A program made the position numbers and the translations under genes. Shown here one piece after another: positions 43 to 63,508 of a stretch of 64,000 nucleotides of DNA; within the stretch, counting starts at the first letter, position 1; the number at the start of each line of letters is the position of its first letter. Source of the stretch: an uncultured Acidobacteriota bacterium (GTDB lineage: Bacteria > Acidobacteriota > Terriglobia > UBA7540); contig CAWDSK010000009.1 of NCBI GenBank assembly GCA_963804995.1, forward strand, positions 224,001 to 288,000. Direction: 5' to 3'. Below the pieces are notes generated by a model, which saw only the letters and a list, made by a program, of their open reading frames with translations, was not told the origin of the DNA and made no database searches.

Positions 43-113
43 ACCGCAGAGGCGCAGAGACGCAGAGAAAAGGCATTCTTTTTAAGCTCTCTGCGTCTCC
101 GCGCCTCTGCGGT
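43..113. repeat. Palindromic intergenic repeat, family B (ACCGCAGAGGCGCAGAGACGCAGAG...CTCTGCGTCTCCGCGCCTCTGCGGT)
   Basis: Imperfect inverted repeat. Related copies at 14278-14348, 25403-25478, 43588-43659 and inside the MITEs at 27749, 28718 and 49898. Confidence 0.85.
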
Positions 114-168
114 GAAAGGGAGTTGTTTCCGGGCCCGCAGAGTGCTAGGCTTTAGGCAGGAGGCGTAT

Positions 169-960
169 ATGCGAAGCTTGCATATTGTCCTGTTATCGTT
201 GTTGCTGGCGGCTGTACCCAGCGCGCTGGCGCAACACGGTGGCGGAGGCCATGGCGGCGGTGGAGGTGGCGGCCGGGGTGGCGGCGGCGGTGGCTTCCAT
301 GGTGGCGGTGGTGGTGGCGGCTTCCATGGCGGAGGTGGTGGCGGCGGCTACCGTGGCGGTGGTGGTGGCGGCGGCTACCGTGGCGGTGGTGGCTATCGCG
401 GTGGCGGCATTGGTCCCCGAGGTGGTAGCGGCCGCGGGGGATTTGGCTATGGAGGCCGCGGCTACGGTGGCTACGGCAGAGGCTACGGTTACCGGGGTCG
501 TTACGGGTTCGGATTTGGCTTCGGCTTTGGAGGGTGGGGTTGGCCCTATTACAGCTATGGGTATCCGTATTACCCATACTACTCTTACGACCCGTGCTAT
601 CCCTACGGCCCCTATGGCCCGTACGCCTGTGATCCCCACGCTTATGGCCCTTACGCGTATGCTCCCGACCCACCGGCGGCGTATTCCATCAATCCTCCGG
701 CAGGGGGACCGGGGCCGGCAACTTATTCCCCCGATCCACCAGTAAGGCGCAACGCTCCTGCCACGGCGGATCCGACGGCGACGCGCAGCGCACCTGTGTC
801 GGATGGCCAGTGGCACCACTTCGGCAATCAACCCGCTCCTCCGGCGCGGGCTGTGACACCCAGTACGCGGCCAGTTTCGCCCGGAACCGATCCACCTCCA
901 ACGCGCAACGTTGCCTTGGCGGACGGCCAGTGGCACCACTTTGGGGGAGGCAGTAAGTAG
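169..960 (+). CDS. Secreted Gly-rich, Tyr/Pro-rich low-complexity protein
   Basis: GGAGG RBS before ATG 169; signal peptide ending in ALA-Q; poly-G/RGG tract; YP-rich tract; two DGQWHHFG motifs. Confidence 0.75.
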   Translation: MRSLHIVLLSLLLAAVPSALAQHGGGGHGGGGGGGRGGGGGGFHGGGGGGGFHGGGGGGGYRGGGGGGGYRGGGGYRGGGIGPRGGSGRGGFGYGGRGYGGYGRGYGYRGRYGFGFGFGFGGWGWPYYSYGYPYYPYYSYDPCYPYGPYGPYACDPHAYGPYAYAPDPPAAYSINPPAGGPGPATYSPDPPVRRNAPATADPTATRSAPVSDGQWHHFGNQPAPPARAVTPSTRPVSPGTDPPPTRNVALADGQWHHFGGGSK

Positions 961-1244: not shown

Positions 1245-1655
1245 ATGGCGGGCGACATAACTCTGGAAGCCGCGGAGCGGATTGTAGCGGCGGCGAAGAA
1301 GAAGGCAGCGGAAATCAATACCAAAATGGACATCGCGGTCGTGGATGCGGGCGGAAATCTCAAGGTCTTTGCGCGCATGGACGGGGCATGGCTCGGCAGC
1401 ATCGACATCGCGCAGCGCAAGGCTCGCACCGCGCGCTGGTTTGACATGGATACGGGCATCATCGGTACGCTCTCGCAACCCGGCGGGCCGCTTTTCGGCA
1501 TCGAGCACTCGAATGGCGGGCTTATCACCTTCCCCGGCGGCGTGCCGCTTAAGAACGCGCAGGGCGAAGTGGTGGGAGCTATCGGGGTCAGTGGAAGTAC
1601 GGTTGAAAACGATCACACGGTGGCCGTAGCCGGCGCCGCCGCGCTTAACAAGTAA
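1245..1655 (+). CDS. Heme-binding protein, GlcG/HbpS (DUF336) family
   Basis: [21 protein letters not shown] and FPGGVPL...[14 protein letters not shown] motifs; GGAGG RBS. Confidence 0.92.
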
Positions 1656-1798
1656 TGGCTGCATGATGGGGCCGGGCCAAGCGCCCGGCCTCTGCACTTC
1701 TCAAAGAGATTTCTCACCTGGGCCCAGCACCGCTCAGCAGCGCCGCAGAATTAAACCAATAGACAAAGCGCAAAATCCAAAGTTGCCAACGGCTGGCG

Positions 1799-3711
1799 GT
1801 TGCGGTAGGGATACCGGTTACCCGGTACCCCCCGCACGGATCCGTACGTGCGCTGGTTAGCGCATACGGCTCTTATCTCGGATGTGTGGCGGCGAACCGT
1901 TGGGATGGCCAAGGATGCACAACGTGCGGAGCAGGCAACCAGCAGGCCGCAAGCTTCCCCAGTCGGTCCCAGTTGAGGCGGTGGCGTTGACTGCGTTGAC
2001 GCAGTTGTGTTCGCCACAGTCGGGTCAACCGTTCCCGAAAGATTCGCAGGCGGTCGAGGTTTCCCGGTACCGCGTGATAGTTGAAGTAGCCTTGCACGAC
2101 CGACCGGAGCCATTTACCCGTATCCGCGATGGGATCGTGCCGACGCTGCCGGAGTTGTTGCTTGAGTTCCTGCAACTTCCCCCGCAGGCGCTTGCTGATC
2201 GTCTTCCGCTTCACGGTAAATTGCCCCCTCCGGTTCTTCCCGCTGATATGCGTGAAGCCCAGAAAGTCGAACGTCTCCGGCTTACCTTCTCCTCTCCGTT
2301 TCCGGTAAAGTTCGGCAAACGGCCCGAACTCGATCCGGCGCGTTTTGTCAGGATGCAGTTCCAATCCAAACTTCCCCACCCGCTCCCGGAAATCCTCCAG
2401 AAAGCGGTCGGCTTCCGTCTGCGATTGGAATCCAAGGACCGTATCGTCGGCATACCGCACCACGACCACGTCTCCCCGGGCGTGCTTCTTGCGCCACGCC
2501 TGCACCCACAGGTCAAAGACGTAGTGCAGATAGATATTCGCCAGCAGGGGCGAGACCACCGCCCCTTGTGGCGTACCCATCTCCGTCTCCGACCATTCGC
2601 CTTCCTCCCTCACCCCGGCTTTCAGCCATTTCTGGATGAGCCGGAGAATCCGGGGGTCGGCGACGCGATGCTGCACGAACTTGAGCATCCATTCGTGGGA
2701 TATCGAATCGAAAAATCCACGAATGTCCGCGTCAAGAACGTAGTTCACGTGCTTCACCGTGAGCGCGTACGAGAGCGCGTCCAGCGCTTGATGCTGGCTG
2801 CATCCCGGTCGAAAGCCATACGAGAAGCCCAGAAAGTCTTCCTCGTAAATCGCCTTGAGGATGGTGACCACGGCCTGTTGGACGATCTTGTCCTCCAGTG
2901 CCGCAACCCCCAACGGACGTTGCCGCCCGTCGCCTTTCGGGATATACGCCCTTCGCGAGGGCTTCGCTCGGAATGCTCCGCGGTGGACCCGGCTGTGCAG
3001 ATCGACGAGTCGACCTTCCAGCCCGCTTTCATACTCCTGCCACGTCATGCCGTCTACTCCCGGTGCAGCTTTTCGCTTCAAGGCGTAAAAGCTTTCCCGC
3101 AGCAGATCGACCGTTAAGTGGTGGAGCAAGGCCGTGAACTTCATCTCCCTGTGTTCCTTCGCGGCTTTCCGCACACCCGCGAGTCCCTGGGACACGCGTG
3201 CCCCGCTCTGTGTCGGGTGCGTGTTAGGCCAACGGGTGTTCTCCTTGATCAGCGGCCTTCCCTCCTCATTCTCCGCCAACGGCTTCCCGTCTTTGTTCAA
3301 ATGATTCATCGGTACTGTTCCGCTGTCCGACTCCTCGAGAGCGTGCAGGCGGGCTGTACGGCCATCGCCTTTTCCCGCCGTCCGGCCACGATCTACGGCG
3401 GCCGGCGCCTCCGAGGTCTCCCGGTTCTCGTGCAGAAAGTGTCTAGGCGTGTCTGGGGTCTACGACTACGCAGGACTGTGCCGGAACTCGCGTTGGCGTC
3501 CCGGCCTCATGTTGCCTTCCGTTTAGTCTGAAAACGTCGGCGTCCTGATTGGACATTTTCGAAGCTCAATACCCAGCCCACCTATTCCCCTGTTTACGCT
3601 TCACCGTGCGCCTCACGACGCCCAGCGCAAAACTCGGGGCCGAGTGGATCGCTACTCCTTCCTCGTGAGAAATTTTCATTCTCTGCTTTCTGCCGGTTTA
3701 TCCCGGCGCAC
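1799..3711 (-). mobile_element. Group II intron, copy 1 (1913 nt)
   Basis: 5' GTGCG at 3711. Domain V (GAGCCGTATGCG...CGCACGTACGGATC) and domain VI end in ...CCGCAAC at 1799. Boundaries are confirmed by copy 2 and by the empty site at 4089/4090. Confidence 0.97.
1873..3309 (-). CDS. ltrA: Group II intron reverse transcriptase/maturase (no HNH endonuclease domain visible)
   Basis: APGVDG, RPLGV, SYGFRPG, LDADIRGFFD, GTPQGAVVSPLLANIYL, RYADD and FDFLGF motifs, plus maturase X domain GYFNYH. Confidence 0.97.
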   Translation of the reverse strand: MNHLNKDGKPLAENEEGRPLIKENTRWPNTHPTQSGARVSQGLAGVRKAAKEHREMKFTALLHHLTVDLLRESFYALKRKAAPGVDGMTWQEYESGLEGRLVDLHSRVHRGAFRAKPSRRAYIPKGDGRQRPLGVAALEDKIVQQAVVTILKAIYEEDFLGFSYGFRPGCSQHQALDALSYALTVKHVNYVLDADIRGFFDSISHEWMLKFVQHRVADPRILRLIQKWLKAGVREEGEWSETEMGTPQGAVVSPLLANIYLHYVFDLWVQAWRKKHARGDVVVVRYADDTVLGFQSQTEADRFLEDFRERVGKFGLELHPDKTRRIEFGPFAELYRKRRGEGKPETFDFLGFTHISGKNRRGQFTVKRKTISKRLRGKLQELKQQLRQRRHDPIADTGKWLRSVVQGYFNYHAVPGNLDRLRIFRERLTRLWRTQLRQRSQRHRLNWDRLGKLAACWLPAPHVVHPWPSQRFAATHPR

Positions 3712-3901
3712 CAGACCCCCGTTCTTTGGGGTCTGCGATGTCTCGCAGGGACACTCTCTTGGCCAGTGTTTGGAGCGTGTAGAGTCTTACCGTTCTGCAC
3801 GCGCATCTAACGCCCCCGACATGACCACTGGTTAGCCGCAACTCACGCCTGCCACTTCGGGGCATCGCAGACCCCAAAAACCGGGGGTCTGCGCCAGCCA
3901 A
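3712..3901. repeat. REPIN-like doublet (family A), copy 1; left end at 1785-1798 is split off by the intron
   Basis: Two inverted hairpins (CGCAGACCCC..GGGGTCTGCG) around a unique spacer of about 125 bp. Near-identical to 4076-4279. Confidence 0.9.
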
Positions 3902-3930
3902 GCAAGGCGGAAATTCACGATGCTTCTTAG

Positions 3931-4019
3931 CCCTCTCCGAGGGGTCGCAGAATCCGCCGTGGCGGAAGAGGGTGGACCGCCGCGGCGTTTTCACCAGCCG
4001 GGACGGGACGGGTGAGGGG
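3931..4019. repeat. Palindromic repeat, family C (GAGGGTGGACCGC...GGGACGGGTGAGGGG)
   Basis: Related copies at 9869-10007, 32571-32643, 33665-33888, 48748-48820 and 63283-63416. Confidence 0.85.
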
Positions 4020-4075
4020 TCTCTTCGTCACCCGCTCGCTGCCTTCCGCTTTCTGCCTTCTGTTCTTATTGTGCC

Positions 4076-4279
4076 GCCAACGGCTGGCGCAGACCCCGGC
4101 CCTTTGGGGTCTGCGATGTCTCGCAGGGACACTCTCTTGGCCAGTGTTTGGAGCGTGTAGAGTCTTACCGTTCTGCACGCGCATCTAACGCCCCCGACAT
4201 GACCACTGGTTAGCCGCAACTCACGCCTGCCACTTCGGGGCATCGCAGACCCCAAAAACCGGGGGTCTGCGCCAGCCAA
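4076..4279. repeat. REPIN-like doublet (family A), copy 2, uninterrupted
   Basis: GGCTGGCGCAGACCCC...GGGGTCTGCGATG-spacer-CATCGCAGACCCC...GGGGTCTGCGCCAGCC. Matches 1785-1798 + 3712-3901 except in the first hairpin loop. Confidence 0.92.
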
Positions 4280-4411: not shown

Positions 4412-5170
4412 TCACTGCGCCGTCCACCCGCCGTCGATCAGGATGTCCGTGCCGGTGATAAATCCTGCCGCGTCGGAGCAGAGGAAGACGGCCAGCGGCC
4501 CAATCTCCTCCAGTTTCCCCCATCGCCCCAAGGGAATCTTGGCCGTAAATTCCGCCGTGGCCACGGGATCCTTCAGCAAGACGGTGTTGATTTCCGTGGC
4601 GAAGGGTCCCGGACTGATGGCGTTGGCCGTGATGTTGTGTGGAGCCAGCTCAAGCGCCAGAGCCTTGGTCATGCCGAGCAGGCCGAATTTGCTCGCGCTG
4701 TACGCCGAGCGCAGCCGCAACGACACGTGCGCCAGGGTGGACGCGATGTTGACGATGCGGCCGAATTTCTTCTCCATCATGCCCGGTATGAAGGCTCGCG
4801 TGCAGAGGAACGGGCCATCCAGATTGGTATGGATGACCGAATGCCACTCCTCAAACGTGAACTCGTGAAGCGGCTTGCGAAGATTGATCCCGGCATTGTT
4901 GATGAGAATATCGGGGACGCCGGCTTGCTTGTGGATCCCCTCGGCAAGCGCTGCGACCTCCGCCTCCACCGCAACGTCGGCGACGAAAGCGTGGGCCTTG
5001 CCGCCCCGTCCGGTAATCTCCGCCTTCACTTCTTCCAGCAGCCCGCGGCTGCGCGCCACCAGCACTACAGCGGCACCGGCGTCTGCCAGTGACAAAGCCA
5101 TTTGCTTGCCCAAACCCTTGCTCGCACCCGTTACCACAGCCAAACGACCATCCAGCCTTTGATTTGTCAC
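4412..5170 (-). CDS. SDR family NAD(P)-dependent oxidoreductase
   Basis: TGASKGLG, NNAG, YSASK and ANAISPG motifs; GTG start after GGAGG. Confidence 0.93.
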   Translation of the reverse strand: MTNQRLDGRLAVVTGASKGLGKQMALSLADAGAAVVLVARSRGLLEEVKAEITGRGGKAHAFVADVAVEAEVAALAEGIHKQAGVPDILINNAGINLRKPLHEFTFEEWHSVIHTNLDGPFLCTRAFIPGMMEKKFGRIVNIASTLAHVSLRLRSAYSASKFGLLGMTKALALELAPHNITANAISPGPFATEINTVLLKDPVATAEFTAKIPLGRWGKLEEIGPLAVFLCSDAAGFITGTDILIDGGWTAQ

Positions 5171-5364
5171 GTTACCCTCCTGGGCACGGAAGGTTAACAC
5201 AACCATCGGGGTGGACGTCAAAGGTCCGTGTGAAATTGGTGAGCCAGGATTTCGGGTGGTGGCAGCTCTTGTGGAACCAGCTACGGGCCTGAGGGGGGTA
5301 TCCCTGCTCTCTGCCGGCCCAGGCCATGGCGCTAGTGACGCACCGTGGCCGCTGCCGGAGGCGG

Positions 5365-32244: not shown

Positions 32245-32379
32245 GGCTGGCGCAGACTCCTGGTTTTGGGAGTCTGCGATCCCGAAGGGACTTCGCATTA
32301 ATGACCGTAGCGCCCACCTGATCGCCGCTACGGCTGCTTTGGGATCGCAGACACCAAAGAACGGGTGTCTGCGCCAGCC
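32245..32379. repeat. REPIN-like doublet (family A), unoccupied intron target
   Basis: GGCTGGCGCAGACTCC..GGAGTCTGCGAT...ATCGCAGACACC..GGTGTCTGCGCCAGCC. Confidence 0.9.
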
Positions 32380-61181: not shown

Positions 61182-61290
61182 CCTGCGCCCCCGGCAGGAG
61201 CCTCGGTGGGCAGGCAGCGTAGCGGGGTTCCCCCCGTTCTTGGGGTCCGCGGTTTTTTCCTGTCAATAGAAGACGAACCGTTGGCTGGCG

Positions 61291-63203
61291 GTTGCGGTAG
61301 GGATACCGGTTACCCGGTACCCCCCGCACGGATCCGTACGTGCGCTGGTTAGCGCATACGGCTCTTATCTCGGATGTGTGGCGGCGAACCGTTGGGATGG
61401 CCAAGGATGCACAACGTGCGGAGCAGGCAACCAGCAGGCCGCAAGCTTCCCCAGTCGGTCCCAGTTGAGGCGGTGGCGTTGACTGCGTTGACGCAGTTGT
61501 GTTCGCCACAGTCGGGTCAACCGTTCCCGAAAGATTCGCAGGCGGTCGAGGTTTCCCGGTACCGCGTGATAGTTGAAGTAGCCTTGCACGACCGACCGGA
61601 GCCATTTACCCGTATCCGCGATGGGATCGTGCCGACGCTGCCGGAGTTGTTGCTTGAGTTCCTGCAACTTCCCCCGCAGGCGCTTGCTGATCGTCTTCCG
61701 CTTCACGGTAAATTGCCCCCTCCGGTTCTTCCCGCTGATATGCGTGAAGCCCAGAAAGTCGAACGTCTCCGGCTTACCTTCTCCTCTCCGTTTCCGGTAA
61801 AGTTCGGCAAACGGCCCGAACTCGATCCGGCGCGTTTTGTCAGGATGCAGTTCCAATCCAAACTTCCCCACCCGCTCCCGGAAATCCTCCAGAAAGCGGT
61901 CGGCTTCCGTCTGCGATTGGAATCCAAGGACCGTATCGTCGGCATACCGCACCACGACCACGTCTCCCCGGGCGTGCTTCTTGCGCCACGCCTGCACCCA
62001 CAGGTCAAAGACGTAGTGCAGATAGATATTCGCCAGCAGGGGCGAGACCACCGCCCCTTGTGGCGTACCCATCTCCGTCTCCGACCATTCGCCTTCCTCC
62101 CTCACCCCGGCTTTCAGCCATTTCTGGATGAGCCGGAGAATCCGGGGGTCGGCGACGCGATGCTGCACGAACTTGAGCATCCATTCGTGGGATATCGAAT
62201 CGAAAAATCCACGAATGTCCGCGTCAAGAACGTAGTTCACGTGCTTCACCGTGAGCGCGTACGAGAGCGCGTCCAGCGCTTGATGCTGGCTGCATCCCGG
62301 TCGAAAGCCATACGAGAAGCCCAGAAAGTCTTCCTCGTAAATCGCATTGAGGATGGTGACCACGGCCTGTTGGACGATCTTGTCCTCCAGTGCCGCAACC
62401 CCCAACGGACGTTGCCGCCCGTCGCCTTTCGGGATATACGCCCTTCGCGAGGGCTTCGCTCGGAATGCTCCGCGGTGGACCCGGCTGTGCAGATCGACGA
62501 GTCGACCTTCCAGCCCGCTTTCATACTCCTGCCACGTCATGCCGTCTACTCCCGGTGCAGCTTTTCGCTTCAAGGCGTAAAAGCTTTCCCGCAGCAGATC
62601 GACCGTTAAGTGGTGGAGCAAGGCCGTGAACTTCATCTCCCTGTGTTCCTTCGCGGCTTTCCGCACACCCGCGAGTCCCTGGGACACGCGTGCCCCGCTC
62701 TGTGTCGGGTGCGTGTTAGGCCAACGGGTGTTCTCCTTGATCAGCGGCCTTCCCTCCTCATTCTCCGCCAACGGCTTCCCGTCTTTGTTCAAATGATTCA
62801 TCGGTACTGTTCCGCTGTCCGACTCCTCGAGAGCGTGCAGGCGGGCTGTACGGCCATCGCCTTTTCCCGCCGTCCGGCCACGATCTACGGCGGCCGGCGC
62901 CTCCGAGGTCTCCCGGTTCTCGTGCAGAAAGTGTCTAGGCGTGTCTGGGGTCTACGACTACGCAGGACTGTGCCGGAACTCGCGTTGGCGTCCCGGCCTC
63001 ATGTTGCCTTCCGTTTAGTCTGAAAACGTCGGCGTCCTGATTGGACATTTTCGAAGCTCAATACCCAGCCCACCTATTCCCCTGTTTACGCTTCACCGTG
63101 CGCCTCACGACGCCCAGCGCAAAACTCGGGGCCGAGTGGATCGCTGCTCCTTCCTCGTGAGAAATTTTCATTCTCTGCTTTCTGCCGGTTTATCCCGGCG
63201 CAC
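61291..63203 (-). mobile_element. Group II intron, copy 2 (1913 nt)
   Basis: Collinear with 1799-3711 at an offset of 59492; differences seen at 62346 and 63146. Confidence 0.97.
61365..62801 (-). CDS. ltrA: Group II intron reverse transcriptase/maturase
   Basis: Identical to 1873-3309 except one K/N residue. Confidence 0.97.
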   Translation of the reverse strand: MNHLNKDGKPLAENEEGRPLIKENTRWPNTHPTQSGARVSQGLAGVRKAAKEHREMKFTALLHHLTVDLLRESFYALKRKAAPGVDGMTWQEYESGLEGRLVDLHSRVHRGAFRAKPSRRAYIPKGDGRQRPLGVAALEDKIVQQAVVTILNAIYEEDFLGFSYGFRPGCSQHQALDALSYALTVKHVNYVLDADIRGFFDSISHEWMLKFVQHRVADPRILRLIQKWLKAGVREEGEWSETEMGTPQGAVVSPLLANIYLHYVFDLWVQAWRKKHARGDVVVVRYADDTVLGFQSQTEADRFLEDFRERVGKFGLELHPDKTRRIEFGPFAELYRKRRGEGKPETFDFLGFTHISGKNRRGQFTVKRKTISKRLRGKLQELKQQLRQRRHDPIADTGKWLRSVVQGYFNYHAVPGNLDRLRIFRERLTRLWRTQLRQRSQRHRLNWDRLGKLAACWLPAPHVVHPWPSQRFAATHPR

Positions 63204-63282
63204 CAGACCCCTGTCCTTTGGGGTCTGCGGTTCTTCGTGCCCGCCGACCTTCACTCGCCCCTTAAGTGGTTCATTGGTGACT

Positions 63283-63416
63283 CCCTCACCCCCCGGCCCC
63301 TCTCCCCCAAAGGGGCGAGGGGGGAGTCAATTTGAATTTACCGCCCTCTCCCCTTTGGGGGAGAGGGTGGACCGCCGCCGGCGCTTTCATCAGCCGGAGC
63401 GGGACGGGTGAGGGGG
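63283..63416. repeat. Family C palindromic repeat
   Basis: CCCTCACCCCCCGG...GGGACGGGTGAGGGG. Confidence 0.85.
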
Positions 63417-63508
63417 TTGTCCAACAAGTAGCGCGGACTGGGGTTGGATTTCCCCCCAGCCCCTAGCTCTCAGCCCCTAATCCCCGTTCTTGTGGTACGC
63501 TTTTAGGG

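Follow-up and report, generated by a model that had tools for sequence, protein, structure and literature searches.

Repetitive extragenic palindromes as the probable homing site of a group II intron, most likely of class E, in an uncultured Acidobacteriota bacterium

The intron and the repeats that it splits

The 64,000-nt stretch of DNA analysed here, called the window, corresponds to positions C9:224001-288000 of the 7.55-Mb, 9-contig genome of an uncultured Acidobacteriota soil bacterium. It contains two copies of a group II intron, each of them inserted in a hairpin-forming repeat of the repetitive extragenic palindrome (REP) type. We conclude that this is very probably an active or very recently active group II intron that lacks an endonuclease, most likely belongs to class E and has the REP as its homing site. 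Its parts in the window are the following (ORF stands for open reading frame, RT for reverse transcriptase, EBS for exon-binding site and ^ for the insertion point).

1799..3711, minus strand: group II intron copy 1, 1913 nt, 5′ end GTGCGCC, 3′ end CTACCGCAAC
61291..63203, minus strand: group II intron copy 2, 1913 nt, 99.9% identity to copy 1, ORF at 61365-62801
3456..3676, minus strand: ribozyme domains D1-D4, Rfam RF02005, 173 bits (gathering score 49)
1799..1874, minus strand: domains V and VI, Rfam RF00029, 39.2 bits, E 1.1e-5, model positions 1-77 of 77
1873..3309, minus strand: intron-encoded RT/maturase of 478 aa with YADD, from the ORF and profile matches
3525..3530, minus strand: EBS1, 5′-CAGACU-3′ (intron nt 182-187), from covariation, in the terminal loop of a D1 hairpin
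3463..3463, minus strand: EBS3, G (intron nt 249), pairing with the +1 C of the 3′ exon, from covariation
3712..3737, minus strand: 5′-exon part of the REP split by copy 1, with the 5′ arm, the loop and 8/10 nt of the 3′ arm, ending GGGGTCTG^
1791..1798, minus strand: 3′-exon part of the REP split by copy 1, ^CGCCAGCC, the last 2 stem nt and the family A flank
63204..63229, minus strand: 5′-exon portion of the REP that copy 2 interrupts, from junction comparison
61283..61290, minus strand: 3′-exon portion of the REP that copy 2 interrupts, ^CGCCAGCC

The intron boundaries were set by comparison with intact REPs and with the other full copies, and the ends, 5′ GTGCG and 3′ ...CAAC, correspond to the group II consensus GUGYG and AY. 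An earlier inspection of the letters without database searches (the sequence-only reading) had placed both copies at one identical junction in unrelated surroundings. This is what we found: the plus-strand junctions are GGCTGGCG^...^CAGACCCC at 1798/3712 and at 61290/63204, the wider flanks are unrelated, and both introns lie on the minus strand. The RF02005 match on copy 2 scored 170 bits (gathering score 49). The RF00029 match remained 0.8 bits under its gathering score of 40 and ends exactly at the 3′ boundary, position 1799; an AGC triad in domain V and a bulged A in domain VI were read from the sequence. The intron-encoded protein (IEP), whose ORF is placed within D4, matched TIGR04416 with 342.5 bits (cut-off 300). 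In the Pfam scan RVT_1 was the sole domain of the 478-aa protein (1.7e-39), and no endonuclease (HNH) domain was found. Without the ORF, 1913 - 1437 = 476 nt are left for the ribozyme. Within the window, the convergent ORFs 1245-1655(+) and 4412-5221(-) enclose copy 1 together with its REPs.

Five intact hairpins of the pattern CGCAGACnnn-loop8-nnnGTCTGCG were found at 3866-3893, 4088-4115, 4244-4271, 32251-32278 and 32346-32373, within a few nucleotides of the positions 3864, 4082, 4243, 32245 and 32344 given in the sequence-only reading; the 5 matches to the core pattern compare with 0 expected from 100 shuffles of the window. As single-stranded DNA these hairpins have a 10-bp stem, CGCAGACnnn/nnnGTCTGCG, and an 8-nt loop, with -12.3 to -14.7 kcal/mol and z values of -3.1 to -4.9. 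The hairpin fold also bears out that the insertion lies within the stem arm, 2 nt from its base, as the intron junction falls between bases 8 and 9 of the 3′ arm. The unoccupied REPs of the window are arranged as follows (REPIN, a doublet of inverted REPs).

3866..3893, plus strand (target orientation): intact unoccupied family A REP hairpin, the right arm of a doublet whose left arm holds copy 1
4082..4277, both strands: intact REPIN-like doublet with 50-nt arms, 82% complementary and 96 nt apart
32245..32379, both strands: second REP doublet, both REPs unoccupied, hairpins 32251-32278 and 32346-32373

In the doublet 4082-4277, the hairpin 4088-4115 has its target on the minus strand and the hairpin 4244-4271 on the plus strand. 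The stems in the doublet 32245-32379 are compensatory variants, CAGACTCC/GGAGTCTG and CAGACACC/GGTGTCTG.

Census of the intron in the genome

BLASTN of the intron against the genome, followed by tabulation of the flanks as the sequence-only reading had proposed, yielded 46 rows: 38 are full copies, 2 are copies truncated at contig ends, and the other 6 are short, diverged fragments. The full copies are 99.7-100% identical and represent 32 distinct sequences, with a mean pairwise difference of 3.4 nt in 1913. The 478-aa ORF is intact in 37/38 of them and EBS1 is the same in 38/38. In 37/38 full copies the hairpin sequence ...C[A/G]GAC..loop..GTC[T/C]G^ closes the 5′ exon and CGC[C/T]A opens the 3′ exon, the flanks being otherwise unrelated. 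For the 38th copy just 3 nt of the 5′ exon precede the contig end, so that a hairpin is not visible there. Hence all scorable copies sit in REPs, 23 full copies in sites of family B (^CGCTAC) and 15 in sites of family A type (^CGCCAG/T/A). The inner base pairs of the occupied stems vary (CCCC/GGGG, CCTC/GAGG, CTCC/GGAG), and insertion is exact to the base, without duplication. Copies outside REPs, an assembly duplication or long shared flanks, any of which would have spoken against REP homing according to the sequence-only reading, were not found in the genome census.

Four contig ends stop within or at intron copies (C2:6-649, C6:2168574-2172663, C7:1-3886 and C9:388252-390164), and the intron is a likely cause of assembly breaks. 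Neighbouring REPs carry tandem introns at two places, on C7 with 69 nt and on C6 with 264 nt between them. The diverged fragments, with 70-90% identity, derive from other family members and were located at C1:206514-206552, C2:652257-652371, C5:460087-460194, C6:842519-842676, C1:440891-441114 and C9:36920-36979. They lie at other target words, for example ...GGGGTTA^ and ...GGGAGTT^; the latter fits the EBS1 AACU of a relative in the related genome G021.

The split repeats are REPs with cognate RAYT genes

The multicopy REP/REPIN family that had been suggested as the landing site is a genuine one, with REPIN doublets and with cognate genes for REP-associated tyrosine transposases (RAYTs). Perfect 8-bp hairpins of the REP type number 454 in the genome when both strands are counted. 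Their arms come in at least 20 sequences, every one accompanied by its exact complement, which amounts to compensatory variation. Family A has the form ...CCCTTCGGGAcATCG-hairpin^CGCCAGCC and family B the form CCACGATACATTCGCTCA...GAAGAACCG-hairpin^CGCTAC. Among 14 Y1-transposase matches in the genome, two directly adjoin REP hairpins, and these two RAYT genes scored 117.1 and 111.8 bits against NF047646 (cut-off 80). Inverted family A REPs flank the RAYT gene on C6, and one of them holds an intron; family B REPs flank that on C5, and the upstream one is intron-occupied.

The C5 gene (C5:58389-58922) lies 37 nt downstream of an intron copy in the same orientation, and a frame reads through from within the intron into the RAYT gene. 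The intron may thus affect the expression of this gene.

Recognition of the target by the intron RNA

Relatives of the intron were collected from same-genus genomes and from public genomes (565 stretches confirmed by tblastn, of which the best 79 loci were kept), many of them from Acidobacteriota/Terriglobia. From these, 49 distinct intron/target pairs of the lineage served for covariation analysis. Intron nt 182-187 are paired with target positions -1..-6 in 92-98% of the pairs at each position, with 5-6 pair types, and intron nt 249 is paired with +1 in 98% (6 pair types, n=42). In the present intron, EBS1 CAGACU pairs with GGUCUG, which forms the 3′-terminal 6 nt of the 5′ exon and is part of the REP 3′ arm. 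The EBS1 pairing ends at -7, where the paired fraction is 0.19. Because this intron-binding site (IBS1) is located inside the REP stem, the stem must open for EBS1 pairing.

A systematic screen of the 49 pairs detected no covarying run facing -7..-20 that could represent EBS2. A U-run at intron nt 80-83 faces the A-rich positions -15..-12, both being conserved and hence without covariation. The loop of the D1 hairpin following EBS1, GCCAACGCGA, was considered as EBS2 because of its apparent complementarity to -12..-9, both in family B and at a single site of the related genome G005, but it was rejected because the same loop occurs alongside unrelated targets and showed no covariation in the screen. 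The targets of the lineage do share the A-rich positions -15..-12 and C-10/G-9, without covariation with the RNA. In the REP this A-rich/CG motif corresponds to the loop in its target-strand reading; when the palindrome is read on its other strand, one finds a T-rich or GC-rich loop, with G or A at +3.

Occupancy depends on pairing and strand

Strands were classed by the sign of the GC skew in a 200-kb window. Hairpin sites with the perfect sequence GGTCTG^CGC are filled at 25/51 positions on the G-rich strand and at 5/86 on the other. The corresponding numbers are 2/55 and 1/55 for GGTCCG^CGC and 1/12 and 0/8 for AGTCTG^CGC. Both strands together, the one-mismatch GGTCCG sites are filled at 3/110. 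A single T-to-C change in IBS1 lowers occupancy more than 10-fold. Across GTCTG^ sites the G-rich strand and the other strand stand at 29:5 among occupied and at 47:103 among empty sites (Fisher p 8.5e-9). Occupancy therefore depends on both pairing and strand.

Among GTCTG^CGC sites 34/184 are filled where a hairpin is present and 0/396 where it is absent. GGTCTG^CGC with a stem below 6 bp was filled in 0/140 cases, 65 of them on the permissive strand, and about 5 permissive half-REPs that carry the motif without a 5′ arm are all empty. None of the 525 sites on the opposite strand of the REP palindromes (^CGG, ^CGA, ^CGT) was filled, and this strand lacks the A-rich/CG motif common to the targets of the lineage.

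Other REP-like hairpin families, whose ends read ACTCTG or GCTCTG, share the CG foot and amount to well over 200 sites without an intron (0 filled among the rows listed). These families can serve as natural negative controls for the pairing of EBS1.

The signs of gene-strand bias and GC skew agree on the clearly skewed contigs C3, C5, C6, C7 and C8, and the G-rich strand was therefore taken as the leading strand. On that basis the intron sense strand would be the template of lagging-strand synthesis. A lagging-strand-template bias has been described for endonuclease-less introns (PMC8919778, PMC4424553).

Relatives and retargeting

Intron matches were present in 18/24 same-genus genomes searched. 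At least 6 full copies, 90% identical to the present intron and with the EBS1 loop CGGAC, were found in genome G005, and all of them sit after hairpins of the form ...C[C/T]G[C/T][G/A]GACCCC-loop-GGGG(T/C)CCG^CGCT(A/G). Genome G006 contains an ORF-less 650-nt derivative at the same kind of site and with the same EBS1 as in G005, and in G002 a copy end lies in a family A-like REP, with EBS1 CAGACU. By hand counts, GGTCCG is the commonest word among the listed REP-type sites, with 70 of the first 100 rows in G006 and 23/50 in G005, where the background is high. Other members of the lineage possess different EBS1 words that match their own 5′ exons, and the target sites of most relatives form a weak hairpin or none (0 to -3 kcal/mol over 30 nt). 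Since the other members reside mostly at such hairpin-poor sites with EBS1 words of their own, comparison of the sequences points to REP homing as a specialisation of a sub-branch, reached through retargeting of EBS1, and not as a lineage-wide trait.

Mini-derivatives of about 480-650 nt without ORF, in which D1-D3 are joined to domains V-VI, were seen at five loci (L038-L042, in genomes G013, G006, G007, G018 and G037). The one in G006 lies in a REP, with a mutated 5′ end. Peat metagenome contigs show matching deletion joints (window 1896->3168..3189).

Class assignment and comparison with known systems

The IEP is 58.0% identical (residues 5-478) to the IEPs at NC_010627:170171-171592 and NC_018696:655442-656863, and a plasmid search gave 58-61% identity over full length to proteobacterial IEPs. 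Miura et al. 2022 (Table_3, PMC8919778 supplement) assign the introns that contain these two labelled relatives to the type 'E, canonical'. They are the Paraburkholderia phymatum pBPHY02 intron at NC_010627:170095-172007 and a second class E intron at NC_018696:655366-657278. On the basis of identity to these two labelled members, and not of a tree, the present intron most likely belongs to bacterial class E. A search of solved structures returned the RT of T.el4h (IIB) at 6e-41 over residues 22-444 and IIC RTs at about 1e-39 over the RT part only; we did not derive the class from it as these E-values are too close. A megablast with the S. meliloti relative, meant to connect the intron with S.me.I4, retrieved no GR4 record.

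The ribozyme is compact, and its 476 nt without the ORF fall within the 450-700 nt given for IIE/IIF ribozymes (PMC3753933). The present intron further resembles class E in lacking an endonuclease domain, in using a 6-bp EBS1 plus EBS3, and in its domain V/VI sequences, which are similar in the plasmid relatives. It differs in its target: the four plasmid-borne relatives examined occupy ordinary single sites without a REP hairpin, whereas the present intron homes to a genome-wide repeat and has reached about 40 copies. Moreover, the IIE introns of Nagy et al. have an apparent EBS2 (PMC3753933), whereas no covarying one was detected here.

The sequence-only reading had framed the intron in terms of group IIC. 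Likeness to IIC does exist: a hairpin-forming, multicopy and probably extragenic target, no endonuclease and no detected EBS2, a lagging-template bias and a high copy number (PMC4424553, PMC8919778). However, IIC introns use an IBS1 of 3-4 bp placed after the stem (PMC7923331), whereas the 6-bp IBS1 of the present intron is part of the 3′ arm of a 10-bp stem. The IIC frame was not upheld, in view of the 6-bp EBS1-IBS1 pairing, of the class E affiliation of the closest labelled relatives and of the non-REP relatives, most of which have no strong hairpin at the target. For the same reasons, the hairpin structure is no more than a possible recognised feature. The present intron also differs from IIC in using one type of REP sequence family and one strand only.

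RmInt1, a class D intron of Sinorhizobium meliloti, homes into a multicopy insertion sequence. It shares with the present intron the absence of an endonuclease, a homing site within another multicopy mobile element, a replication-linked strand bias and the presence of many copies. Strain GR4 has 10 copies (PMC5894124). It differs in pairing EBS1, EBS2 and EBS3 with a longer, unique site inside the insertion sequence, whereas the present target is a palindromic REP of roughly 28 nt in which the RNA reads 7 nt only.

REPs are known as insertion targets for other mobile DNA, since ISPpu9, ISPpu10, ISPsy8, ISPa11 and IS1397 insert into them (PMC1525189); these are DNA transposons, unlike the present retroelement. 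In Pseudomonas putida KT2440, 2/9 copies of a group II intron are associated with REPs (Tobes & Pareja 2006, PMC1525189). That is 22% of the copies, with no mechanism given where that report describes the association, whereas here every scorable copy lies in a REP, at one exact base and with a matching guide sequence. The sequence-only reading had taken this kind of homing to be undescribed. REP-specific homing of group II introns was indeed not found among the papers listed by full-text searches of the open literature, but an association of such an intron with REPs had been recorded in KT2440.

Proposed mechanism and alternative explanations

Activity in splicing and retrohoming is implied by the about 40 near-identical copies, and we propose the following route. 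Excised intron RNA together with the RT would reverse-splice into the strand reading ...A-rich loop-CG-nn-GGTCTG^CGC.... The RNA would directly read 7 nt, through EBS1 CAGACU with GGUCUG of the REP 3′ arm and EBS3 G with the +1 C. The A-rich positions -15..-12, C-10, G-9 and probably the +3 C would be read otherwise, presumably by the protein, which would explain why one strand of the palindrome only is used. As the protein lacks an endonuclease, cDNA synthesis would be primed by replication, and copies would then accumulate on the strand that is the lagging-strand template. REPs would provide hundreds of sites outside genes, multiplied by RAYT transposases, and so permit the build-up of about 40 copies, probably without harm to the host.

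Several points weigh against this interpretation. The class E call has the basis given above, identity to two members. The replication strand was deduced from two weak signals, the GC skew, whose contig means stay within +/-0.026, and the gene-strand bias; the two copies of the window lie on a contig with near-zero skew and fall in the minority class by +/-50-kb skew, and 5-6 copies have the 'wrong' orientation. REP sequence and structure are inseparable, the sites with the full motif and without the 5′ arm being too few (about 5). Related genomes are not independent samples. An orthologous empty site was not found in three relatives (G013, G017, G021), in which the orthologues of gene 1245-1655 are followed by a different downstream synteny without the REP block. 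Public metagenome contigs (peat, sediment; Logan) and one RNA library are short and do not bridge the site; the public contigs cover pieces of the intron but not the flanks of the copy 1 site.

The alternative to be taken most seriously is a structure-guided, IIC-like targeting in which the REP hairpin, extruded on single-stranded DNA, is recognised as a shape and the sequence match is secondary. It would account for the stem of at least 6 bp at 34/34 occupied GTCTG^ sites, for the lack of insertions at the 396 hairpin-less and the 140 short-stem sites and at the few half-REPs, and for the tolerance of different inner base pairs in occupied stems; the hairpins are stable as single-stranded DNA, and a lagging-template bias suits a single-stranded target. 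On the other hand, the 6-bp EBS1 target is within the stem, which has to open, most lineage relatives sit at weak or no hairpins, and the closest labelled relatives are of class E, not C. The opposite strand of the palindrome folds just as well into a hairpin, which likewise contains GGTCTG^C, and is filled in 0/525 cases, and the hairpin-less sites also lack the A-rich/CG motif, so that 0/140 does not isolate structure. We regard this explanation as possible but rather unlikely. A bolder form of it, in which a class E lineage independently evolved IIC-like behaviour with an extruded REP hairpin on the lagging template as an obligatory target, and lives as a hyperparasite of the REPIN/RAYT system, is offered as a tentative idea that we doubt more than we favour. 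If it were true, each insertion would separate the GTAG/CTAC foot from the stem by 1.9 kb and thereby put the REP concerned out of action, EBS1 would evolve in concert with whichever REP variant dominates in a given host species, and a fourth natural target specificity would exist beside homing sites, terminators and attC.

Spread without retrohoming, by recombination or gene conversion between REPs or by a RAYT that moves a REP-flanked unit, would draw on the dispersed homology that REPs provide, and it would fit with the two RAYT genes directly beside occupied REPs and with the tandem introns in tandem REP arrays. But families A and B carry near-identical introns although their common sequence extends no further than about 10 nt to either side of the junction, the flanks beyond the REP are unique, and insertion is base-exact without duplication. 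The sister-genome EBS1, moreover, differs in step with its sites. Because of the short A/B homology, the sensitivity to one base of IBS1 and the strong strand dependence of occupancy, we consider passive spread highly improbable. An assembly artefact, with one or a few intron copies duplicated or wrongly joined, has in its favour the four contig ends at intron copies, by which the intron does disturb the assembly, but 38 full copies in unique flanks with 32 distinct sequences, and the same arrangement in related genomes, leave practically no room for an artefact.

Significance

A 2015 review distinguishes three target specificities of bacterial group II introns, namely unique homing sites, terminator motifs and attC (PMC4424553). 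With REP homing by a class E intron, REPs would be a further one, reached by a non-IIC intron; for an intron type that is otherwise ordinary, such a landing site is new in kind. The genome offers a natural experiment on how a retroelement gains a high copy number without hitting genes: a site of which the RNA reads 7 nt is embedded in a repeat that supplies hundreds of targets, and on the permissive strand introns already occupy about half of the sites that match perfectly. In a sister species, a different guide sequence goes together with the REP variant of that species. Two selfish systems, the intron and REPIN/RAYT, are thereby linked in one genome, and testable predictions for replication-coupled retrohoming arise. 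In REP-carrying bacteria, targetron-type tools might also use REPs as safe landing pads that are available in many copies.

Other features of the window

A different repeat, containing GGGACGGGTGAGGGG, has 230 exact copies in the genome and occurs in the window at 3927-4020 and 63300-63420. It adjoins both intron-bearing REP regions and has a very high depth in metagenome contigs. The protein encoded by the ORF at 112-960 (+) looks secreted and is extremely rich in glycine; it combines GGGGG(H/F/Y/R) repeats with a tail rich in proline.

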